This document shows positions 10,046 to 18,186 of a stretch of 18,186 nt of DNA, one piece after another (position 1 is the stretch's first letter; each line of letters starts with the position of its first letter). Origin of the DNA: Nitrospira japonica (lineage in GTDB: Bacteria; Nitrospirota; Thermodesulfovibrionia; Thermodesulfovibrionales; SM23-35); NCBI GenBank assembly GCA_020725385.1, contig DYFC01000066.1:1-18186 (forward strand), written 5' to 3'. The position numbers and the translations under genes were made by a program. The notes below the pieces were generated by a model, which saw nothing but the letters and a program-made list of their open reading frames with translations, was not told the DNA's origin and did no database searches.

Positions 10046-13000
10046 ATGATTTATATGCCAAATGTAAACATTCCAAATCCATCAAACAAGAAAATACTTT
10101 CTATCGTGGTTCAGGGACGTAACGACAATTACATGGGAAATTTTATATGGAGACTTTCCACAAATATAAATAAGCAGTCAAAAAATATTTTTGCTCTTGG
10201 TTATGAAAATCAAGCTGAAATTATATTGGTCGATTGGGGAAGTGAAATTTCCCTTAAGGATGTATTAATACTCAATAATGAAGCAAAGTCTCTTCTAAGG
10301 ATAATAGAAGTTCCACCATGGATAGCAAACAAATACAATCTTGACTCGCCCTATTCCTGTGTTCATGCTATTAACACAGGAATAAGAAGAGCTCATGGAG
10401 AATATGTCCTTTTCTGCGATGGAGACACATATGTTCCTCTTAATTCAATGGAAAAGATTTTCAACATGTTAAACGACGGGAATTTGAACGGAATTCCTAT
10501 TAATAAACTGCTCCTTCTTGCCTCGCGTTACCATATACCTAAATCTTTTCAAGAGACAATGCCCGAACTTGAAGATATAGACAATTATATTGAGAAAAAT
10601 CTAATTACCCTTTCCCACGATAAAATTAATATTGATAATTTTATGGGCACTGCCACGGCTTATTTAATGTCAAGGGATTTATGGTTTGAATCCAGGGGGT
10701 TTGATGAAAAGCTTATTTACTGGGGATGGTTTGATATAGATCTTTTCTGCCGCATAATTACAAAGTATCCTGTCTTTGATTTTGAAGATTTTGGAATGCT
10801 TTTTTTTCATCTTGAACATTACACCGATTCGAAGAATCGTTCTCTTGAAAAAGAAAACCCGAGAAAACCAAATCCAATGATTTATCCTTCGGGATTCACA
10901 AATAACATGGAAAACTGGGGTTTATCATCCGAAAAGCTGTTGGAAACATTTTTATTTCCCATTATCTTTATACATAAAGGCGATAGCGATTATCTCACAT
11001 ATACCCTCAGGTGTGCCAAGTTGTTCAATCCACATTCAGAAATTATCTTGCTCGGCGATGAGGCAAACGAACATTTCAAATCTCATGGCATAAAACACTA
11101 TTATTATTCTGAATATGAAGGAGAAGAGTCCCGTCTGTTTGATTCAATATTTAAATATATTGCAGGTACAGACCACCCCGGGAAACCATGGTGGGTACAC
11201 TTTGTTTTCAAAAGATGGTTTCATGTCTATTTTTTCATTAAAAAACATAATATTTCCAGATTCTGGATTTTTGATTCCGACACCTTAATTCTTTCAGACT
11301 TAAGTAAACAGGCAATAAAGTTCATTGATTTCGATTGCACCGAACAGTGCAATGGTTCATGCATGAATGGTTTAATAGGAAATTCAGGTATAGTTAAAGG
11401 TTATATTGATACAATCAACAAGTTATTTCAGGATGAAGAATTTCTCTTAAAACAACAAAAAGAATTCGAGACAAAAAAAACATATGCTTTTACAGAGATG
11501 AGGGCATACGTTTTTTTTAGAAATAATTCGGGTATCAAAACGATTCGCCTAAATTCAATAATTGATGGTGAAACTTTCGATGACTGTATCTGCCAGCAGC
11601 ATGATATGGAGATGGAAGGAGGAGTTAAAAAACTTTATTTTAAAAATAACAGCGTTTATCTTAAACATATTCCTGATCAAAAATTAATCAAAGCTAATAG
11701 CCTTAATATGAGCTGGGTGCCTGTTTCATTTATAAAACAAGTTTATGATATTGTAAGCGAGAAAAAACCCTTATCCTCACAACAGTCTTCAAAAAATGAA
11801 TTTTCCAGAAAAGATAGTGATTTGCCGGTACATTTTTTCACGATCGTACTTAACGGAGAACCCTTCATCAGGTATCATATTGAAGCATTCAAACAATTAC
11901 CATTCAAATGGCACTGGCATATTATTGAAGGCGTCGCGGACTTAAAACATGATACAGCATGGAGTCTGAAATATGGAGCAAGAATCACCGATGAGATACA
12001 TGATAAAGGCTTAAGCAATGACGGCACAACCGGCTATATAGACCAGATAAAAAAGCAATTTCCCGAAAACGTCTCTGTTTACCGTAAACCGGAAGGTATA
12101 TTCTGGGATGGCAAGATCGAAATGGTCAATGCCCCGCTTTCTAACATTAACGAAGAGTGTCTTCTCTGGCAGGTGGATGCTGACGAATTATGGACCGTAG
12201 AGCAGATATGCAAAACCCGTTCTCTTTTTATTGAAAATCCGGATAAGACCGCTGCTTACTATTACTGCCATTATTTTGTCGGCGAAAAACTTATTATTTC
12301 AACACGTAATACATATGGTAATCATACTGATTATGAATGGTTGAGAACATGGCGTTATATTCCCGGTGATCGCTGGATGGCACATGAACCTCCAAAACTT
12401 TTTAGAAAAACCGGGAACGAACAATGGATTGATATAGCTTCAATTAATATCTTCAGACACAATGAAACAGAAGAACACGGGCTCATTTTTCAGCATTATT
12501 CTTATGCAATAGAAGAACAATTATTTTTCAAGGAAAGATATTTCGGTTATTCTGGAGCAGTAAATAAATGGAAACTGCTCCAGAGACAGACTCACTTCCC
12601 TGTACTTTTAAGACATTTTTTCAACTGGGTTGAAGACAACGCGCTCGTTGATACAGTTGAAGCTTTAAATATAAAACCACTTGCATGGAAAGAAGTTGAA
12701 GGACAATGGCATTTCAGACATCATGAACTGCCTGAGGAACAAAAATCTTATGCCAGCACAAAGCAGCAAGCACACAAAACAGAAAAGAAACAAATTAAAG
12801 CCGGGAAAAATATCTTATGGATTCGCACAGATGCAATAGGCGATGCTATCCTATCAGCTTCAATGCTTCCTTATATCAGGGTGAAATATCCCGAAGCAAA
12901 TATAAATGTTGTTTGCCAGAAGCATATTGCAGAAATTTATGAACCATCTCCTTTTATTGATAGAATTATAGTTTTTGATGAAAAGCTTCTCTTTGATGAT

Positions 13001-16000
13001 AAAAATTATTTAAAAGCTATACTTAAAGAAATTCAGGACGTAAATGCCGATATTGCTTTTAATCCGGTTTATTCTCCAAAACCTGTTACAGACATTCTTA
13101 CTATCGGAAGTGTTGCAAAAGAAAAAATAGGACTTGAGGGTGATCTATCGAATATTCCTGCTGATTTTAGAGAAAACAGCAAAAAACACTATACTAAACT
13201 TATAAAAAGCGAAGGCATATTCAAGGCCGAAATTGAAAGACACCGGGATTTTCTCAAAGGTCTTGATATTAATCCATTGGAACTAAAACCCGTTATATGG
13301 CTAACAGAAGAAGACGAAGAATATGCCGATAATTTTTTTAGAATTCGTAACATTGTTCCTGAGAATACAATTATTCTTGCCAGTTGCGCTCAGTTTATTA
13401 TCAAATATTATCAACATTATGGAATAGCACTTTCTAAGATATGCAAGGAAAATGATTTTACCGTAGTTGCAGTTGGAGCAGATCATGAAAAAGAGAGGAA
13501 TCAATTCAATCTGAACATGATCGGTTCCAGCACGATAAATCTATGCGGTCAGACAACAATCCGCCAGACCGCTGCTTTAGTTAAGAGAAGCCGTCTTGTT
13601 GTTAGTGCTGACTCAGCAGTTGGTCATATTGCCTGTGCTGTTGGAACACCTAATGTAATCATTATTGGAGGCGGACAATTCGGGAGATTTTTCCCTTACT
13701 CACCTTTAACTGCTGTTGTCTGTCACCCTATGCAGTGCTATCAGTGTAACTGGGCTTGTAAATTTCCGAGACCTTATTGCATTCAAAATATTTCTTCTAT
13801 AAGTTTATCCGAAGCTATCAGGGAAACATTGAATGGAATTCCGGATAGACCAAGAATATTTTTTGAAACAGATGCTATAAAAGACAAAATTCAGGGTCAG
13901 GATTACTGGAAATGGTTCGGGGAGTATATTAAATTTACGCCTTCAGATTTGATACCTATTGAAAAAAGTCCTGAGTCAGATAAAAAATCGCCCCCTAATC
14001 TTGAAAAAACAGGAAGAATAACCTTTTCAAAACTTGATGAAAATGCAATCATTGGTGGAGGATTCATCGCCACAACATTCAAGGCAGGTTTGTGCAACAG
14101 AATATTAGAATGGACAATTCTCAGAGAAATTAGCGAAAAATACGGGATGACAATTCTCGTTGACTGGGAAGAGGTAAAAGACGGCTCGATAATATTACCT
14201 TCAACACAATATTTTGATCTTTCAACTGCGTCCTCTGAAATTGCCGGAACATTTATACCTTTAAGAACCGACCTTCCCGATATAAACTCACTTGATGATC
14301 TAAAAATCGAGAAAAATAAAAATTATATTCTAATATGCGAATGGAATTACAAACGTAGTCTTACAGATGAGAAAAAACGAATTCAGGAAATCCAGATTGG
14401 CAAAAGATATTCTGACAGGATTAATGATTTTCTTAAAGAATATGAAAAAAATGTTATTGTCGGCCTTCATGTACGAAGAGGTGATTATATTCCTACAGAG
14501 AAATTTCTACTGTCAGATAAAAAATTTTATCGGATACCGGATGAGTGGTATCTCAATATCGCAAAACAGATTTTGAATGAAATACCCGGTGCAAAATTTT
14601 TTCTTGCAACAGATGCCACCGAAGAAGAGAAAAAAATATTTAGAGAAAATCTACCTGTAATATCTATATCAGCCGGCAAAGAAACACCCCGTCTTGATAT
14701 ACTTGAACTTTTTACCCTTTCGAGCCTTCCAGCAATTATATGTTCTGTCTCGACTTTCAGTATATTTGCAAGAGATTACGGTAGGGAAAAGGTTTCTGTA
14801 TGGCCTAAAGAACCGTATCAGGATATTAGAGATGAGATCGAAATGATAAAAAGAACATCTTCAACCTTTTCTTTAAAAATCAGCCCATCAGCAGCATTAC
14901 CAAGAATTTCTGTGGTTACACCTTCATTCAATCAGGGCCAATATATTGAAAAGACAATTCTTAGCGTACTCGAGCAGGGTTATCCTGACTTCGAGCACAT
15001 AGTAATTGATGGTGGCTCTACAGACAATACACCGGACATTCTAAAAAAATATCCGCACTTAAAATGGATATCCGAAAAAGATGAAGGTCAGGCTGATGCT
15101 TTAAATAAAGGATTCAGGATGGCCAGCGGAGACATTATTGCATGGATTAATTCAGATGACTGGTACGAGCCTGAAGCTTTTAATACAGTTGCCATGTGGT
15201 TCAAAGAAAATCCGGATAAGAATATTGTTATGGGTGATTGTAATCTGATTGACAGAAACGGGACAGTATTTTACGTAGCAGAAAACTATGAACGTGGCTT
15301 CGAAGAGATAAGCCGCTTCTGGATAACAGGCTCTATTCCAACACAACCTGCAATTTTCTTCAGGAAGAGTCTGCTCGATGAATTTGGCTATCTTGATAAA
15401 TCTCTTCATTATGCTATGGACTATGACCTCTGGATAAGATTTGCAGGTAAGAACCGTTTTTATCACATTAAAAAAATTGTTGCCAACTATCTTTTCCATG
15501 AAGGTTCGAAGGGTGGTATCCATCAGGATTGGGACAAGTTTATCCCTGATTGCAAGAAGGTATTCAAAAAACACGTTCTTTCCAGAAGACCTCCTGAAGT
15601 TTCTGTTGTAATTGCCTGTTATAATCAGGCTGTTTTTTTACCGGAAGCTGTCAGGAGTGTTACAGAGCAGGTATTTCAGGATTTTGAAATAATCATTGTC
15701 AACGATGGAAGCACGGATAATACAGAACAGGTTGCTGAAATGCTCGTTCAAAAATATCCTGACAATATTATAAAAATAATAAATCAAAAAAATATGGGTG
15801 TTTCTGCAGCAAGAAATGCTGGAATTAAAGCTTCAAGTGGAAAATATATTCTTCCTCTGGATGCCGATGACATGCTTCATCCTGATATGCTTTTACGGAC
15901 AACAGGACTTTTGGATACATACCCGGAAGTAGGGATAGCATATACCGATGTTCAAAAATTCGGGAAATTAGAAGAATACTGGCAGTCATGGGATTGGGAT

Positions 16001-17644
16001 TTAAACAGGCTTTGCTTTCAGAATATACTGCCTTATTGTTCGCTTTACCGGAGAGAAGTATGGGATACCGCCGGTGGATACAAAGAAAGAATTATTTTTG
16101 GATATGAAGACTGGGATTTCTGGATAAGTTGCGCTGAAAAAGGTATAACAGGCAAACGCATTCCTGAAAATCTATTAATATATCGTACGAAAGAAACAAG
16201 CCGGGACACAGAAGCAATTAAAAGCCATGAAAAATTGTTTGCCCATATTGTTTTAAACCATCCTTCATTGTATAAATCCGATACAATTGCATGGGCAAAA
16301 AGTGTTGTAGGAACTTTAGAAAATTCAGACGTAGTAAAAGATGATAAGGTTGCTTCAATTTCCACTAAGGGATTCTTTAAACCAATGAATATTCTTCTTT
16401 GTGTTCATAGTTTTCCAACACAGAGAATGGCGGGCACAGAGCTCTATGTCTATCATTTAGCAAAGGAATTAATGAATAAAGGACATAATATCAAGGTGCT
16501 TTATCCTGTATATGATAATAATTCGGATTACATTGATATAAAAGAAGATAGTTTCGAAAATATCACGCTTGCGCAGATGCATTTGAGACCCCCTTCCAAT
16601 ATAATCGAGCATTTCAAAAATGAACAGGCAGCGAATGTTTTTAATAATTATATATCCTTGAATCCACCCGATATAGTTCACTTTCATCATTTCATGGGAA
16701 TTTCTGCTTCTCCGCTTAAAGCATGTCACGAACAAAATATCCCTTCAGTTGTAACTTTGCATGATGAATGGATTTTGTGCGAACAGCTTCATTACCTTCT
16801 GCCAGATGGCACCTTCTGTAGCGGTCCGGAAACAATTCAGAAATGCGTTGAATGCTTCATTATACGTCATCCAGAGATTCAACTAACCAATATAAAAGAA
16901 AATATATACGAGGCTTTTGTTCTAAGACGCCGGTTTTTTATCGAGGCTCTTAAGTGGATAACTACTTTAATTGTCCCTTCTTTATTTTTGAAAAACGAGT
17001 TAACAAAACATAAATTTATACATCCTAATATATTACATGTACCTCTTGGACTTCATACTTTTACTTCTGTCCCGTATAAGATGTCGCCTGATACCACAAG
17101 ATTGACATATCTCGGAAATATAAATTTTACCAAGGGATTCGACGTTCTGATCAAAGCATTTAATCTAATTAATATAAACAGAGCGGAACTGAATGTTTAT
17201 GGAAAAGTGCAGGATGAAGTATTCTTCCATCAGGTAATGTCCCTTAACATGAAACCTTATCAGGTTAAGATTCATGGACAATATAATCCGTCCGAATTGC
17301 CCAAAATCTTATCAAAAACAGATTTAGCTGTTATACCTTCACGCTCGGAAAACTACCCCTTTGTTGTTAGAGAATGTCTTCATGCCAGTGTTCCTGTTAT
17401 TGCTTCAAATGTCGGCGGCATACCCGAAATTATAAAGAATGCTGAAAATGGACTATTGTTTGAGTCAGGAAATTTTCAGGATCTTGCATCCAAATTAATG
17501 CTTTTGATTATGAATCCGAAAATGTTGTTGAATTTCAGAAAAAACATTAAACCTGTAAAAAGCATCGAAGAAGATGCTTCTGAATTGGAGAACATATATA
17601 AAGAAATTCTTGAGAATAAAAAATTAATACTCAGGAAAAAATAA
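10046..17644 (+). CDS. Giant multi-module glycosyltransferase (about 8 modules: three divergent GT-A-like, GT9-like, GT11-like, two GT2, GT4)
   Basis: 2532-aa uninterrupted ORF. Motifs: FCDGD and RGFDEKLIYWGWFDIDL; FDSDTLI; VDADELW; ILWIRTDAIGD and DSAVGHIACAVGTP; GLCNRI, HVRRGDY and STFS; ISVVTPSFNQ, DGGSTD and NSDD; VSVVIACYNQ, NDGSTD and LDADD; MNILLCVHSFP, GTELYV and ENYPFVVRE. Start could alternatively be ATG 10055. Confidence 0.92.
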   Translation: MIYMPNVNIPNPSNKKILSIVVQGRNDNYMGNFIWRLSTNINKQSKNIFALGYENQAEIILVDWGSEISLKDVLILNNEAKSLLRIIEVPPWIANKYNLDSPYSCVHAINTGIRRAHGEYVLFCDGDTYVPLNSMEKIFNMLNDGNLNGIPINKLLLLASRYHIPKSFQETMPELEDIDNYIEKNLITLSHDKINIDNFMGTATAYLMSRDLWFESRGFDEKLIYWGWFDIDLFCRIITKYPVFDFEDFGMLFFHLEHYTDSKNRSLEKENPRKPNPMIYPSGFTNNMENWGLSSEKLLETFLFPIIFIHKGDSDYLTYTLRCAKLFNPHSEIILLGDEANEHFKSHGIKHYYYSEYEGEESRLFDSIFKYIAGTDHPGKPWWVHFVFKRWFHVYFFIKKHNISRFWIFDSDTLILSDLSKQAIKFIDFDCTEQCNGSCMNGLIGNSGIVKGYIDTINKLFQDEEFLLKQQKEFETKKTYAFTEMRAYVFFRNNSGIKTIRLNSIIDGETFDDCICQQHDMEMEGGVKKLYFKNNSVYLKHIPDQKLIKANSLNMSWVPVSFIKQVYDIVSEKKPLSSQQSSKNEFSRKDSDLPVHFFTIVLNGEPFIRYHIEAFKQLPFKWHWHIIEGVADLKHDTAWSLKYGARITDEIHDKGLSNDGTTGYIDQIKKQFPENVSVYRKPEGIFWDGKIEMVNAPLSNINEECLLWQVDADELWTVEQICKTRSLFIENPDKTAAYYYCHYFVGEKLIISTRNTYGNHTDYEWLRTWRYIPGDRWMAHEPPKLFRKTGNEQWIDIASINIFRHNETEEHGLIFQHYSYAIEEQLFFKERYFGYSGAVNKWKLLQRQTHFPVLLRHFFNWVEDNALVDTVEALNIKPLAWKEVEGQWHFRHHELPEEQKSYASTKQQAHKTEKKQIKAGKNILWIRTDAIGDAILSASMLPYIRVKYPEANINVVCQKHIAEIYEPSPFIDRIIVFDEKLLFDDKNYLKAILKEIQDVNADIAFNPVYSPKPVTDILTIGSVAKEKIGLEGDLSNIPADFRENSKKHYTKLIKSEGIFKAEIERHRDFLKGLDINPLELKPVIWLTEEDEEYADNFFRIRNIVPENTIILASCAQFIIKYYQHYGIALSKICKENDFTVVAVGADHEKERNQFNLNMIGSSTINLCGQTTIRQTAALVKRSRLVVSADSAVGHIACAVGTPNVIIIGGGQFGRFFPYSPLTAVVCHPMQCYQCNWACKFPRPYCIQNISSISLSEAIRETLNGIPDRPRIFFETDAIKDKIQGQDYWKWFGEYIKFTPSDLIPIEKSPESDKKSPPNLEKTGRITFSKLDENAIIGGGFIATTFKAGLCNRILEWTILREISEKYGMTILVDWEEVKDGSIILPSTQYFDLSTASSEIAGTFIPLRTDLPDINSLDDLKIEKNKNYILICEWNYKRSLTDEKKRIQEIQIGKRYSDRINDFLKEYEKNVIVGLHVRRGDYIPTEKFLLSDKKFYRIPDEWYLNIAKQILNEIPGAKFFLATDATEEEKKIFRENLPVISISAGKETPRLDILELFTLSSLPAIICSVSTFSIFARDYGREKVSVWPKEPYQDIRDEIEMIKRTSSTFSLKISPSAALPRISVVTPSFNQGQYIEKTILSVLEQGYPDFEHIVIDGGSTDNTPDILKKYPHLKWISEKDEGQADALNKGFRMASGDIIAWINSDDWYEPEAFNTVAMWFKENPDKNIVMGDCNLIDRNGTVFYVAENYERGFEEISRFWITGSIPTQPAIFFRKSLLDEFGYLDKSLHYAMDYDLWIRFAGKNRFYHIKKIVANYLFHEGSKGGIHQDWDKFIPDCKKVFKKHVLSRRPPEVSVVIACYNQAVFLPEAVRSVTEQVFQDFEIIIVNDGSTDNTEQVAEMLVQKYPDNIIKIINQKNMGVSAARNAGIKASSGKYILPLDADDMLHPDMLLRTTGLLDTYPEVGIAYTDVQKFGKLEEYWQSWDWDLNRLCFQNILPYCSLYRREVWDTAGGYKERIIFGYEDWDFWISCAEKGITGKRIPENLLIYRTKETSRDTEAIKSHEKLFAHIVLNHPSLYKSDTIAWAKSVVGTLENSDVVKDDKVASISTKGFFKPMNILLCVHSFPTQRMAGTELYVYHLAKELMNKGHNIKVLYPVYDNNSDYIDIKEDSFENITLAQMHLRPPSNIIEHFKNEQAANVFNNYISLNPPDIVHFHHFMGISASPLKACHEQNIPSVVTLHDEWILCEQLHYLLPDGTFCSGPETIQKCVECFIIRHPEIQLTNIKENIYEAFVLRRRFFIEALKWITTLIVPSLFLKNELTKHKFIHPNILHVPLGLHTFTSVPYKMSPDTTRLTYLGNINFTKGFDVLIKAFNLININRAELNVYGKVQDEVFFHQVMSLNMKPYQVKIHGQYNPSELPKILSKTDLAVIPSRSENYPFVVRECLHASVPVIASNVGGIPEIIKNAENGLLFESGNFQDLASKLMLLIMNPKMLLNFRKNIKPVKSIEEDASELENIYKEILENKKLILRKK

Positions 17645-17666
17645 GAAATGGCTCCCGGGGAGGGAC

Positions 17667-17684
17667 TCCCGACATCCGTCGGGA
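17667..17684. repeat. 18-nt REP-like palindrome B
   Basis: TCCCGAC-ATCC-GTCGGGA, perfect 7-bp stem with 4-nt loop. Confidence 0.9.
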
Positions 17685-17692
17685 CAGGGTGG

Positions 17693-17976
17693 TTAATCCC
17701 GAACGCCTTCGGGACTCTGCCGACTGAGCAGGTAATCGATATATGCTCTGCTTTTCTTACCCTTAATCTCTTTCTCCCGTTTCATCGCTGCCGAACGGGT
17801 CTCATATTCCTCTGTGTACACGCATCTCCACGGTCCTTTTTTGCTTTTTGTGTGTTTTGACCCATGATATTTGGAATCGTTATGTTGATAGATTCGACGT
17901 GCAAGATTATCCGTATGACCAACATAGTACTCAGAGGTTGATTCACTTTGTAGTATATATATATAAAGTATGACAT
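17693..17976 (-). pseudogene. Small GIY-YIG nuclease (YhbQ/UPF0213/Slx1-like), frameshifted in a (TA)6 tract
   Basis: Manual translation with one TA unit removed from 17954-17965 gives 93 aa: MSYFIYILQSESTSEYYVGHTDNLARRIYQHNDSKYHGSKHTKSKKGPWRCVYTEEYETRSAAMKREKEIKGKKSRAYIDYLLSRQSPEGVRD. It has YIL/YVG strands, RR..QHN, GPW and AMKREKEIK (catalytic Arg and Glu). Confidence 0.92.
17697..17714. repeat. 18-nt REP-like palindrome A
   Basis: TCCCGAA-CGCC-TTCGGGA, perfect 7-bp stem with 4-nt loop. Confidence 0.9.
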
Positions 17977-17984
17977 GGATAATT

Positions 17985-18060
17985 TGGCTCCCGGGGAGGG
18001 ACTCGAACCCCCGACAGGGTGGTTAACAGCCACCTGCTCTGCCGACTGAGCTACCCGGGA
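17985..18060 (-). tRNA. tRNA-Asn (GTT)
   Basis: 76 nt TCCCGGGTAGCTCAGTCGGCAGAGCAGGTGGCTGTTAACCACCCTGTCGGGGGTTCGAGTCCCTCCCCGGGAGCCA; full cloverleaf, GTT anticodon, GGTTCGA T-loop, G73 discriminator, encoded CCA. Confidence 0.98.
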
Positions 18061-18070
18061 ACAGATTATT

Positions 18071-18100
18071 TTTATAACAAAATATTTCTACTTTTGTCAA
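18071..18100 (-). promoter_or_regulatory. Putative sigma70 promoter of tRNA-Asn
   Basis: Minus strand TTGACA (18100-18095), 18-nt spacer ending in TGT (extended -10), TATAAA (18076-18071), 10 nt upstream of the tRNA. Confidence 0.7.
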
Positions 18101-18108
18101 ATTAACGA

Positions 18109-18170
18109 ATTGCCTCATCAAAAATCTAACTGAAAATGATTCATTGCCTCATTTAAAAATCTAAATGAAA
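18109..18170. repeat. Imperfect direct repeat, 2 copies
   Basis: ATTGCCTCATCAAAAATCTAACTGAAA (18109-18135) and ATTGCCTCATTTAAAAATCTAAATGAAA (18143-18170). Confidence 0.65.
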
Positions 18171-18186
18171 TAGAAAGACATTACAA

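Follow-up and report, generated by a model that had tools for sequence, protein, structure and literature searches.

A partial tRNA-Asn copy with two signature hairpins beside a small GIY-YIG nuclease gene points to a probable tRNA-targeting cassette in Nitrospira japonica

The window analyzed here, an 18,186-nt stretch of Nitrospira japonica DNA, contains an intact tRNA-Asn gene followed on the same strand by a small nuclease gene and a partial copy of the same tRNA that forms the 3′ end of the nuclease gene (Table 1). The intact gene is the sole tRNA-Asn that ARAGORN found in the assembly. Its promoter-like boxes were read by eye, as the consensus scan omitted a box whose last letter is A; relatives carry equivalent TTGACA/TATAAA boxes 5′ of their intact tRNA. 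On direct reading of the window, the interval between tRNA-Asn and the nuclease gene has no promoter of its own. The nuclease start codon (ATG, 17976-17974) lies 8 nt past the 3′ end of the tRNA, and the tRNA copy, together with the first of two hairpins within it, supplies the final 12 codons and the TAA stop (17695-17693). The encoded protein is ~93 aa in relatives; here its frame is broken by 2 extra letters in a TA run (17954-17965), present in the X1 and X4 contigs and absent from the X8 contig. In the ORF list, 4 nt separate the end of the tRNA copy from the stop codon (17642-17644) of a convergent 2532-aa ORF.

Table 1. Features of the tRNA-Asn/nuclease locus, in coordinates of the window
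Feature	Position	Strand	Basis or remark
Promoter-like TTGACA-N18-TATAAA	18071..18100	minus	direct reading; 10 nt 5′ of tRNA-Asn
Intact tRNA-Asn (GTT)	17985..18060	minus	ARAGORN; Rfam tRNA 64.7 bits
GIY-YIG nuclease gene, SLX1/UPF0213 type (by sequence)	17693..17976	minus	translations, PF01541, alignment with relatives
Partial tRNA-Asn copy, whole	17649-17729	minus	alignment with intact tRNA-Asn
tRNA copy nt 10-24 (D arm)	17715..17729	minus	15-nt exact match; encodes nuclease C-terminal LLSRQ
Hairpin 1, TCCCGAA GGCG TTCGGGA (tRNA sense)	17697..17714	minus	replaces tRNA nt 25-34
tRNA copy nt 35-48 (anticodon loop/stem 3′ half and variable loop)	17683..17696	minus	14-nt exact match
Hairpin 2, TCCCGAC GGAT GTCGGGA	17667..17684	minus	inner 14 nt replace tRNA nt 49-56
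tRNA copy nt 57-76 (remaining T arm, 3′ acceptor strand, CCA)	17649..17668	minus	20-nt exact match

Aligned with 17640-17760 and written in tRNA sense, the intact tRNA-Asn reads GCTCAGTCGGCAGAG, CAGGTGGCTG, TTAACCACCCTGTC, GGGGGTTC, GAGTCCCTCCCCGGGAGCCA, and the copy GCTCAGTCGGCAGAG, TCCCGAAGGCGTTCGGGA, TTAACCACCCTGTC, CCGACGGATGTCGG, GAGTCC...CCA. As an earlier note on this DNA had described, nt 25-34 and nt 49-56 (the 5′ T stem and the start of the T loop) are replaced rather than interrupted, with no target-site duplication. The two 18-nt palindromes have 7-bp stems and GGCG or GGAT loops, are each preceded by a G, and differ at stem pair 7 (A-T versus C-G); both are part of the minimum-energy DNA and RNA folds. 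A genome-wide scan for TCCCGA-N6-TCGGGA returned 2 copies in 2,463,613 bases, both within the tRNA copy, and the 2 matches to TCCCGANNNNNNTCGGGA in the window compare with a mean of 0.00 in 200 dinucleotide shuffles, which, with none elsewhere in the assembly, excludes chance. Over 17320-17776, an independent X1 contig shows 0 differences from the window, and the arrangement recurs in run X8 in a strain that is ~98% alike, indicating that this stretch is not an assembly artifact. Among the sequencing-run contigs, we saw no joint, deletion, or circle forms of the locus, and no RNA run contained more than a tRNA-sized portion of the window, which carries no information on expression.

The nuclease matches PF01541 over residues 3-75 (69.4 bits against a cut-off of 22.6, E 3.3e-19) and is a single domain of 93 aa with no joined DNA-binding domain, unlike the Seg/Mob homing endonucleases. 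The conserved Tyr of GIY, Tyr and Gly of YIG, central Arg, and C-terminal Glu, which we take by analogy to have catalytic roles, are all found, and Y6, Y17, G19, R26/R27, and E67 are invariant across 8 aligned sequences. Its closest PDB relatives are 1zg2 (E 5.7e-10), 1ywl (8.5e-8), and SLX1 chains (1e-4 to 5e-3; also 4xlg), and the PDB sequence search returned no I-TevI or UvrC chains at E up to 0.01. By sequence, the protein is a member of the SLX1/UPF0213 (YhbQ-like) branch. TIGR01453 scores 18.7 bits against a cut-off of 56, and NCBIfam, PADLOC, and PHROGs offered no specific family, just sub-threshold GIY-YIG-type matches. According to PDB molecule names and literature descriptions, SLX1 is a structure-specific nuclease that cleaves branched and stem-loop DNA, which agrees with a nuclease that would read a hairpin. 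The nuclease is almost absent from phage, plasmid, and viral-contig collections: phage records gave 2 partial protein matches (41% identity), plasmid records 1 protein match within a chromosome-sized record, and IMG/VR 6 matches, N-terminal fragments only.

Related Thermodesulfovibrionales carry layouts like that of the window. Within a search set of 41 genomes including G000, tRNA-Asn, a GIY-YIG gene, and a tRNA copy with hairpin 1 (mostly together with hairpin 2) follow one another in seven genomes. Among genome_contigs we found 560 protein relatives and examined the best 80 loci, which come from more than 10 phyla. An adjacent same-strand tRNA is present at 60 of these 80, with Asn, Val, Met, Ala, Asp, Pro, Ser, and Glu isotypes represented, and 67 have a TCCCG...CGGGA hairpin no more than 200 nt from the nuclease gene; the strict motif is missing at 13. 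Around the genes, 163 hairpin matches were counted where 5.9 would be expected; 113 of them fall into the 50.5 kb closest to the gene, and the remaining 171.5 kb account for 50. In a motif-blind check on 38 extra copies of tRNA nt 44-52, 29 were preceded by CGGGA, placed directly before nt 44-52 or, in Asn, before TTAACCNNN, with variant hairpins at 6 and none at 3. The co-occurrence of hairpin and GIY-YIG clade, on which the earlier note's reading turned, is therefore positive in related genomes and across phyla.

The positions at which the hairpin replaces tRNA sequence recur. Among the best 80 loci, the junction in Asn copies is 24/35 (last tRNA nucleotide before the hairpin/first after it) in 32 distinct copies and 28/35 in 6, and Val, Met, and Pro copies have 26/44 in 10. 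Copies that precede the intact tRNA start at nt 1, reach the hairpin after nt 24, 26, or 28, and continue only as far as ~42-47 (in Asn copies of several phyla) or 55-60; in the complete form, the post-hairpin part of upstream Asn copies corresponds to ~nt 35-46. Downstream copies begin at nt 6-21 (about nt 10) and reach 73-76. Relatives keep a hairpin at the hairpin 2 position with covarying stems, and at three loci hairpin 2 is absent and the T arm intact. Some loci are tandem arrays, with 7 units of 84 nt in L018, 9-10 units of 75 nt in L036, and three nuclease genes in L084. ARAGORN labels hairpin copies as tRNAs with 4-letter anticodons. The left-hand junction is absent from the window, whose contig stops 126 nt 5′ of the tRNA, and also from several relatives (L004, L005); the insert in the window measures ~0.35 kb and the complete form in relatives ~0.5-0.6 kb. 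We rejected a coding constraint as the reason why hairpin 1 is conserved: non-coding upstream copies carry the same hairpin, and in non-Asn cassettes the nuclease ORF ends before it.

The hairpins form a conserved family with compensatory changes, as had been proposed from the window alone. Across 31 distinct 18-mers from relatives, pairs 6 and 7, which the motif search did not impose, are paired in 99% of cells and show 22 double changes, a covariation matched by 0 of 500 shuffles. From phylum to phylum the five outermost base pairs (TCCCG/CGGGA) stay the same, and the inner pairs covary; in 103 distinct hairpins, the inner pairs comprise 215 Watson-Crick, 2 G-U, 3 A-C, and 7 other. This near-lack of wobble suggests that the hairpin resembles a DNA rather than an RNA element, and the spacing of its half-sites (14 to 34 nt) fits a stem-loop but not a rigid dimer site. 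Two other ideas about the stem were set aside: the G-U and A-C counts are uninformative as a marker of strand, and the first 5 pairs equal the tRNA-Asn acceptor stem here, yet the same base accompanies Met, Val, and Pro tRNAs with other stems, which argues against acceptor-stem mimicry.

The motif is also abundant away from the cassette, so its tie to GIY-YIG genes is not exclusive. In many relatives, TCCCG...CGGGA is 3-9 times commoner than the reversed control (230 vs 26 in G039, 130 vs 26 in G001), and relatives rich in the hairpin hold just 1-8 PF01541 matches per genome, UvrC included. Four relatives in which a UvrC-sized protein is the only PF01541 match lack this excess, though they are kin and not independent (G005, 5 vs 9; G013, 5 vs 12; G032, 2 vs 31; G033, 2 vs 73). 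One genome has ~200 dispersed hairpin copies; of 20 sites sampled in a Bacteroidales genome, 15 had no nearby tRNA or GIY-YIG gene, and some were plain terminators. A second small GIY-YIG clade of the N. japonica genome is bracketed by inverted TTCC(C/T)GC...GC(G/A)GGAA hairpins. The only Y1_Tnp match in this genome is weak, partial (23.2 bits), and away from the locus.

These comparisons partly support the earlier interpretation, which envisaged an active process overwriting the left arms of DNA stem-loops. Left-arm replacement describes both hairpin sites in the window, but it is not a general rule across tRNA copies: Val, Met, and Pro copies swap the whole anticodon arm (nt 27-43), some Asn copies have nt 39-47 replaced, and the second hairpin site is lineage-specific (T arm or acceptor). 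As the motif occurs nowhere else in the 2.46-Mb genome, overwriting is not a genome-wide process here. The anatomy fits a junction left by cassette insertion better than an overwriting activity that runs freely.

An empty site in G012 (L113) bears on how the cassette arose. There, leuB, a promoter, tRNA-Asn, and the flank ctaaaatcaagggtttgcagagatgcaagcc follow one another; in filled sites the same flank comes after the 3′ end of the tRNA copy, and the leuB-side promoter drives the upstream hairpin copy at three loci. This comparison places the cassette inside the ancestral tRNA. Further empty sites, including that in G005 (L009), indicate sporadic presence at a conserved site, as homing endonucleases show. 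Compensatory T-stem changes distinguish the remnant from the intact tRNA at two loci only (L032 and L058), as if sequences with two histories had been joined at the hairpin; most remnants do not differ from the local tRNA. Each of the two alleles also occurs as a functional tRNA-Asn type in the family of L058 (18 and 7 of 25 loci), and the cassette is found in 1 of the 25. In a quick, weakly supported protein tree, Asn clades mix Nitrospirota, Thermodesulfobacteriota, Planctomycetota, Verrucomicrobiota, and Acidobacteriota, and isotype is clustered (26 changes vs 36.2 when shuffled, 0 of 200 as low). This pattern suggests that the cassette spreads horizontally while keeping its tRNA target.

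On balance, we think it somewhat probable that the palindromes are the signature hairpins of a tiny homing-type cassette, consisting of a promoter, a replacement tRNA, and a 93-aa nuclease, and that they act at the DNA level. The 5′ half of its complete form would consist of the ancestral promoter and tRNA nt 1-24, a hairpin, nt 35 to ~46, and a spacer with its own promoter, and the 3′ half of the intact tRNA, ~11 nt, the nuclease gene, nt ~10 to 24, a hairpin, and nt 35-76 with the ancestral terminator. A core of tRNA 10-24, hairpin, and tRNA 35-46, together with the replacement tRNA and nuclease gene, would have entered the resident tRNA gene by copying at a break in its anticodon arm, presumably through double-strand-break repair or homing. 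The window would then be a simplified derivative, retaining an intact tRNA-Asn, a frameshifted nuclease gene, and the right-hand junction. Hairpin 1 would be the junction hairpin, standing where the presumed cleavage region was, such that the spare copy would be neither cleavable nor a working tRNA. Hairpin 2 may reflect a second event of like kind in the ancestral T arm that removed the T-loop box; of the 42-nt direct repeat that flanks the nuclease gene, it would leave uninterrupted blocks of 14 and 20 nt, and the cassette should therefore resist loss through repeat recombination.

The loci directly show their anatomy, their conservation, the stem covariation, and the empty site; anticodon-arm cleavage, the repair pathway, and hairpin binding are the parts of this proposal that we infer from that anatomy. 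Outer pairs that are kept and inner pairs that covary suggest that the hairpin is probably the cis element of a structure-specific nuclease. A dual role in immunity and recognition is an assumption on our part, as immunity alone would need no conserved sequence and recognition alone no arm replacement. Several observations count against homing. The intact tRNA beside the nuclease gene is unchanged and would stay a target, the window's nuclease gene is frameshifted, RecA-type repair would have only short homology arms, of 15-42 nt, to work with, and TCCCG...CGGGA is neither exclusive to the cassette nor present in strict form at every locus. The missing left-hand junction, the finding of compensatory remnant alleles at just two loci, and the near-absence of the protein from phage, plasmid, and viral-contig collections weigh in the same direction.

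The same loci could also be read without any insertion: the nuclease would recut the resident tRNA, unequal recombination would produce tandem tRNA units with or without the nuclease gene, and the hairpin would be a nuclease-resistant anticodon-arm allele spread by biased gene conversion, with selection keeping the last functional copy. Near-identical hairpin-bearing tandem units 5′ of the intact tRNA and tandem nuclease units 3′ of it favor this local explanation, as does the report that SegB yields just such arrays in phage T6 (PMC13096335, in the part consulted). Ongoing conversion is indicated by remnants that mostly match the tRNA beside them and by T-loop polymorphisms that change in step in intact and remnant copies from genome to genome; three loci (L025, L026, and L120) look as if re-conversion had been partial and a new hairpin had then formed at nt 39-47. 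However, upstream copies end at ~nt 42-47 in several phyla, pointing to an inherited boundary rather than independent decay, and compensatory allele differences set the remnant apart from the intact tRNA at L032 and L058. The sporadic distribution (1 of 25 in one family) and the phylum-crossing protein clades require transfer between genomes, and the invariance of the outer five pairs is left unexplained; we regard a purely local origin as unlikely. In another reading, the tRNA promoter would drive tRNA, nuclease mRNA, and tRNA-like tail as one transcript, in line with the lack of a separate promoter for the nuclease gene. The hairpins could then act in RNA as 3′ (or 5′) stabilizers or processing signals, or the hairpin-bearing pseudo-tRNA repeats could form a ToxI-like decoy or antitoxin RNA that binds the nuclease. 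Repeat arrays placed 5′ of a small nuclease gene are reminiscent of type III toxin-antitoxin loci, whose ToxI repeats bind ToxN. In Val, Met, and Pro the hairpin swaps exactly the anticodon arm (26/44), with 5 conserved pairs equaling the length of the anticodon stem, and one hairpin has two U-G pairs on the sense strand (L013:1453-1470). Slx1-like bacterial domains are also fused to RNA/tRNA methyltransferase-like domains in the portion of a 2006 survey consulted (PMC1564403).

Against a role in RNA, wobble is nearly absent from the 227 inner pairs, and a tRNA fold is impossible, since downstream copies are without the 5′ acceptor strand and upstream copies without the T arm and 3′ strand. 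The hairpin stands 3′ of the gene, 5′ of it, or both, depending on configuration; no Rfam family matches the tRNA-like tail, whose RNA fold is unexceptional (z -1.68, 12 of 200 shuffles as good); and the hairpins have no T run and hence are not terminators. Together, these points make an RNA function quite improbable in our view. Least probable, and only barely credible to us, is that generic GC-rich palindromes (REP-like or terminator stems) have been moved by another enzyme or by slippage and have gathered in DNA the cell can spare, for example dead tRNA copies, with no functional tie to the GIY-YIG protein. The genome-wide enrichment of the motif in many relatives, mostly far from GIY-YIG genes, the copies that are ordinary terminators, and the weak Y1-transposase match could be explained in this way. 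But both copies in this genome lie within the cassette, junction positions recur across phyla and tRNA types, the relatives with a UvrC-sized match alone show no hairpin excess (with the same caveat of kinship), and the second GIY-YIG clade is bracketed by related hairpins of its own.

Extending the homing-type reading, it is conceivable, though we would not yet call it probable, that small SLX1-like GIY-YIG nucleases and TCCCG...CGGGA hairpins form an unrecognized partnership, similar in function to REP/RAYT but with a hydrolytic nuclease. One branch would be a self-sufficient mobile cassette of ~0.5 kb that invades the anticodon arms of essential tRNA genes in at least 10 phyla, pays for the damage with its own tRNA, and leaves hairpin-marked pseudo-tRNA scars and arrays that count past events, with the hairpin as the cis site of its nuclease. 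Within the main texts covered by a full-text literature search, no paper linked small bacterial GIY-YIG genes with partial tRNA copies or such hairpins, and in the literature searched we found no demonstrated role for UPF0213-like single-domain GIY-YIG proteins; section 11 of the 2006 superfamily survey mentions neither tRNA linkage nor hairpins (PMC1564403). If correct, the proposal would describe one of the smallest autonomous DNA elements known to us, made of a 93-aa protein, a tRNA, and two hairpins, and a third way for a selfish element to live inside an essential tRNA gene, beside self-splicing and integrase att duplication. The large UPF0213-like family would gain a testable function and a defined nucleic-acid partner, and the odd 'tRNA-???' labels, partial tRNA calls, and pseudo-tRNA arrays seen in annotation would be accounted for. 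Such a minimal nuclease, reading a short hairpin whose base is conserved, would be of interest to enzymologists as well.

Several known systems resemble parts of this arrangement. No intron family was found by Rfam in 17400-18186 at E up to 10; with Rfam 15, the intact tRNA alone passes, with nothing above noise on 17649-17729, and a search for intrinsic terminators gave 0 terminator-like sites in 17500-18186 (TTAACC and GTCCCT follow the hairpins). Group I introns of tRNA anticodon loops that carry GIY-YIG genes are likewise nuclease-linked mobile insertions at the anticodon whose damage is compensated (PMC3984707, in the part consulted), but the N. japonica locus has no ribozyme, and compensation would come from a second intact tRNA gene rather than from splicing. 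At integrase islands and prophages in tRNA genes, an insert likewise follows the intact tRNA, and the 3′ part of the tRNA is directly repeated. Here, however, no recombinase lies between the repeats, GIY-YIG being the sole ORF family found there; the repeats are broken by hairpins into 15, 14, and 20 nt; and the crossover region is an anticodon arm that bears a heterologous hairpin.

Among GIY-YIG enzymes, SLX1/UPF0213 proteins are nearest to the window nuclease by sequence (1zg2, 1ywl, 4xlg), but the RING domain and SLX4 partner of SLX1 are missing here, and SLX1 is a repair enzyme rather than part of a mobile cassette. [quoted passage not shown] SegB is, however, a two-domain I-TevI/Seg phage protein, whereas the chromosomal 93-aa protein here is a catalytic domain alone, by sequence of the SLX1/UPF0213 branch, and the consulted part of the SegB study describes no signature hairpin or anticodon-arm replacement (PMC13096335). 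REP/RAYT systems likewise feature short GC-rich hairpins in which the base is conserved and the top varies, and of which some genomes hold many dispersed copies (PMC2817692, PMC3733652, as far as consulted), and the gene of the second GIY-YIG clade is bracketed by inverted hairpins in a comparable way. They differ in that both the linked enzyme and the bracketed gene here are of the hydrolytic GIY-YIG type, not HUH transposases, and in that the tag is TCCCG/CGGGA rather than GTAG or CGTC, with two copies of the window type in the genome.

The intact tRNA-Asn gene, a partial copy of that tRNA and, between them, a single GIY-YIG nuclease gene (PF01541, E 3.3e-19) all lie on the minus strand within the final 540 bases of the window, a stretch that independent metagenome contigs reproduce. 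Aligned with the intact gene, the copy retains tRNA nt 10-24, 35-48 and 57-76 exactly (blocks of 15, 14 and 20 nt), with nt 25-34 (CAGGTGGCTG) swapped for TCCCGAAGGCGTTCGGGA at hairpin 1 and nt 49-56 (GGGGGTTC) for CCGACGGATGTCGG, thereby completing TCCCGACGGATGTCGGGA, at hairpin 2. This alignment bears out the earlier note, which had read both changes as replacements rather than insertions, without target-site duplication. Its details of the palindromes were also right: each has a 7-bp stem preceded by a G, with GGCG and GGAT loops, and the two differ by one compensatory pair. The window's two TCCCGA-N6-TCGGGA sites compare with 0.00 expected there (200 shuffles), and no further site occurs anywhere in the 2.46-Mb assembly.

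Together, the D-arm remnant, hairpin 1 and the TTAA left from the old anticodon loop supply the nuclease's final 12 codons (...LLSRQSPEGVRD) and its TAA stop. Two surplus letters in a TA run at 17954-17965 disrupt the nuclease frame and are also present in contigs of two metagenome runs (X1 and X4). A strain in run X8, ~98% alike, lacks them and has an open frame, and the proteins of relatives are intact at 93-94 aa. By sequence, the nuclease groups with UPF0213 proteins and SLX1, and not with two-domain homing endonucleases. This clade has one copy in the genome; another small GIY-YIG clade has three copies or remnants there. Nearby, a long ORF with a glycosyltransferase-like C-terminal part stops with 4 nt separating it from the tRNA copy's 3′ end. 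The AT-rich stretch at the window's end is found again at 13 further sites in the assembly (contigs C2, C11, C12, C15, C16, C18, C28, C31, C33, C47, C50, C53 and C55), six of them contig ends, and in relatives too; contig depth over it reaches ~4500. Lying immediately upstream of the tRNA promoter, it is probably a repeat at which the assembly breaks.

Coordinates of the tRNA, nuclease and hairpin features (window positions unless a genome, contig or locus is named)
Feature	Position	Strand	Basis or remark
Intact tRNA-Asn(GTT)	17985-18060	-	ARAGORN, Rfam
Partial tRNA-Asn copy	17649-17729	-	Alignment with intact gene; downstream in tRNA sense
Hairpin 1	17697-17714	-	
Hairpin 2	17667-17684	-	
GIY-YIG nuclease gene	17693-17976	-	ATG 8 nt past tRNA CCA
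2532-aa ORF	10046-17644	+	
~80-nt AT-rich stretch	18106-18186		
Second small GIY-YIG clade (MKNYYVYILCSKRNGTLYIG...)	G000 (window's own assembly) C27:21500-22200, C65:3300-3900, C29:108760-109460		
Pseudo-tRNA arrays, hairpin replacing anticodon arm in each unit	L018:780-1404; L036:565-1315; L035:1120-1394; L047:1-290		Directly upstream of intact tRNA
Stray remnant (L011 / L132)	G006:C1:617300-618900		
Hairpin-bearing tRNA-Ala copies	L107:901-1092		

Across 40 related genomes and the window's own, the order tRNA-Asn, nuclease gene, hairpin-bearing copy was found again in G015, G002, G009, G022, G004, G001 and G037, with truncated forms in G003 and G011. Hairpin 2 covaries among relatives (TCCCGCC..GGCGGGA, TCCCGCA..TGCGGGA, TTCCGCA..TGCGGAA), and at loci L004, L016 and L019 it is missing with the T arm intact, indicating that the two hairpin events are separable. 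Several relatives carry one or two copies upstream of the intact tRNA, consisting of nt 1-24, hairpin 1 and nt 35-46. The stray remnant in G006, 29 kb away from that genome's intact tRNA-Asn, comprises the nuclease gene's last ~70 nt and a tRNA copy with both hairpins. At two other loci, L120 (G023:C20) and L127 (G018:C90), a different GIY-YIG clade (…YVYVIKS…IYIGQT…) lies directly 5′ of tRNA-Asn; in the downstream remnant at L120 the hairpin follows the anticodon loop and replaces nt 39-47, as in L025 and L026.

Searching species-representative genomes with the nuclease protein returned 560 relatives, of which the best 80 loci were examined. As labelled, these come from Nitrospirota, Thermodesulfobacteriota, Bacteroidota, Ignavibacteriota, Chlorobiota, Planctomycetota, Verrucomicrobiota, Acidobacteriota, Methylomirabilota, Omnitrophota and Fidelibacterota, among others. 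A same-strand tRNA adjoins the nuclease gene at 60 of these best 80 loci, lying within 60 nt upstream at 45 and at or just past the gene's 3′ end at seven (four overlapping it). The linked isotype is Asn in most, and also Val, Met, Ala, Asp, Pro, Ser or Glu. In these cross-phylum loci the gene adjoins a partial copy of the linked tRNA whose anticodon arm is swapped for a hairpin with a TCCCG...CGGGA base. At 67 of the 80 loci the strict motif is no more than 200 nt from the nuclease gene (163 matches in total, 5.9 expected), so it does recur in related genomes together with this GIY-YIG clade, as the earlier note's reading entailed. In a motif-blind check, tRNA nt 44-52 had 38 extra copies: CGGGA precedes 29, variant hairpins (GTCCGC..GCGGAC, CCCCG..CGGGG, TCCGAT..ATCGGA) precede six, and three have neither. 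Junctions are fixed: in Asn copies the hairpin joins nt 24 to nt 35 (32 copies) or nt 28 to nt 35 (6), and in Val, Met and Pro copies nt 26 to nt 44 (10), an exact swap of the whole anticodon arm. Second hairpins occupy the T arm or acceptor, the place differing by lineage. Seven loci are mirror images, with nt 1-26, the hairpin and nt 44 to ~57 followed by the nuclease gene and then the intact tRNA.

That the hairpins form a conserved family rather than a chance resemblance, as first proposed from the two palindromes, is upheld by stem pairs 6 and 7, which lie outside the search pattern: pairing holds in 99% of cells and 22 double changes occur, a result matched by 0 of 500 shuffles. Pairs 1-5 are set by the pattern and uninformative in this test, their conservation resting on the motif-blind check. 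The 103 distinct hairpins have a modal stem of 7 bp, loops of 2-4 nt and total lengths of 14-34 nt. Such variable spacing of conserved halves argues for a folded stem-loop over a duplex site for a rigid dimer. Their inner pairs comprise 215 Watson-Crick, 2 G-U, 3 A-C and 7 other combinations; the near absence of wobble pairs argues that the hairpin acts as DNA, or stems from a process making perfect palindromes, rather than being a long-evolving RNA helix.

Many relatives, and genomes from other phyla as well, contain far more TCCCG...CGGGA hairpins than small GIY-YIG genes. Of 20 hairpin sites sampled in a Bacteroidales genome, 15 have no tRNA or GIY-YIG gene within ~850 nt, and some sites are plain terminators. 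Relatives whose only PF01541 match is a UvrC-sized protein show no hairpin excess, a comparison among kin genomes that does not constitute a test. One whole chromosome (G039:C1) carries ~200 dispersed TCCCGC-TCGTAG-GCGGGA copies in both orientations (230 pattern matches vs 26 for a reversed control), a REP-like family. In the Bacteroidales genome G041, two hairpin-bearing tRNA-Ala copies, labelled tRNA-??? with 4-letter anticodons by ARAGORN, lie by a tRNA-Ala/tRNA-Ile pair near 16S-like sequence, with no GIY-YIG gene within the 3.8 kb examined.

The outer five pairs stay constant across phyla despite protein identity down to ~45% and inner pairs free to change, suggesting that something must read them. 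Their sole constant partner is the nuclease, a putative reader with structure-specific enzymes as its closest characterised relatives. Support for this role comes from the window genome's second small GIY-YIG clade, which is flanked by inverted GTCA-TTCC(C/T)GC-loop-GC(G/A)GGAA-TCCAG copies, the upstream one 11 nt before the ATG. That clade's hairpin is also dispersed, solo on C3, C21, C29, C31, C45 and C53 and in ~85-nt hairpin-spacer-hairpin doublets, and looks REPtron- or MITE-like. Hairpin 1 would mark the cassette junction in the presumed target's place, so that the spare copy could be neither cleaved nor converted to a second tRNA; the intact tRNA next to the nuclease gene is still a potential target. 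Hairpin 2 would take out the T-loop box and break up the repeat that flanks the nuclease gene, shortening its longest unbroken run from 42 to 20 nt, and this should slow cassette loss.

Upstream copies run from tRNA nt 1 to 24, 26 or 28 before the hairpin and stop past it at ~nt 42-47 for Asn (Nitrospirota, Desulfobulbaceae, Planctomycetota, Verrucomicrobiota) or nt 55-60 for Met and Val; downstream copies start at nt 6-21 and extend to the tRNA 3′ end. A true empty site (L113, in G012) reads leuB-promoter-tRNA-Asn-terminator, and its terminator flank stands after the downstream copy in filled relatives. In loci with an upstream copy, it is this copy that the leuB-side promoter drives, and the spacer provides the intact tRNA with a separate TTGACA/TATAAA box. 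From these reciprocal ends and flanks, the resident tRNA gene appears split at the anticodon arm, its halves flanking a unit of hairpin, nt 35-46, spacer/promoter, tRNA, nuclease gene, nt 10-24 and hairpin. Such a cassette would be the expected product of an anticodon-arm break repaired from a template carrying nt 10-24, hairpin and nt 35-46, whether through gap repair in which a circular or tandem form crosses over, or through plain homing from a filled allele. The window locus, L004 and L005 lack the left junction; for the window locus, either it was deleted when the two nt 1-24 repeats recombined or it is located past position 18186, where the contig ends.

At loci L032 and L058, remnant and intact tRNA differ by compensatory T-stem changes, implying that both alleles were formerly working tRNAs. 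In the family of L058, the two alleles serve as functional tRNA-Asn at 18 and 7 of 25 loci; the cassette occurs at only one of the 25, and one further locus has a lone upstream scar. In a quick, weakly supported protein tree, phyla intermix within Asn-linked clades, and isotype clusters yet switches inside the Bacteroidota/Ignavibacteriota/Chlorobiota group. The compensatory alleles, the sparse occurrence and the phylum-mixing clades are independent signs of transfer. At L154 (G065:C8), a lone upstream-type scar (TCCCGGTGGGCCGGGA, then tRNA nt 35-53) precedes tRNA-Asn by ~137 nt, and GIY-YIG genes are absent within 1.5 kb.

A full-text literature search found no description of tRNA-linked small GIY-YIG cassettes, hairpin-bearing pseudo-tRNAs or this hairpin family; the Slx-1 section of a 2006 superfamily survey (PMC1564403) mentions none of them, and Rfam, NCBIfam, PADLOC and PHROG have no entry for them. 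We file the cassette as a GIY-YIG element of the free-standing homing type located at tRNA genes, unusual in its replacement tRNA, signature hairpins and scar arrays. Those arrays hold 3-10 near-identical hairpin-bearing units of 75-95 nt in tandem upstream of the intact tRNA, and tandem nuclease units, 2-3 each, lie downstream at L084, L035, L047 and L112 (a Bacteroidales genome). Phage SegB, according to PMC13096335, is a GIY-YIG nuclease whose cut sites in tRNA genes lie at a T-loop-like motif; it drives recombination-dependent tandem amplification of tRNA plus nuclease by way of homology that the 3′ end of the segB gene shares with the tRNA 5′ region. As described there, the SegB arrays provide a tested precedent for the tandem units at the present loci.
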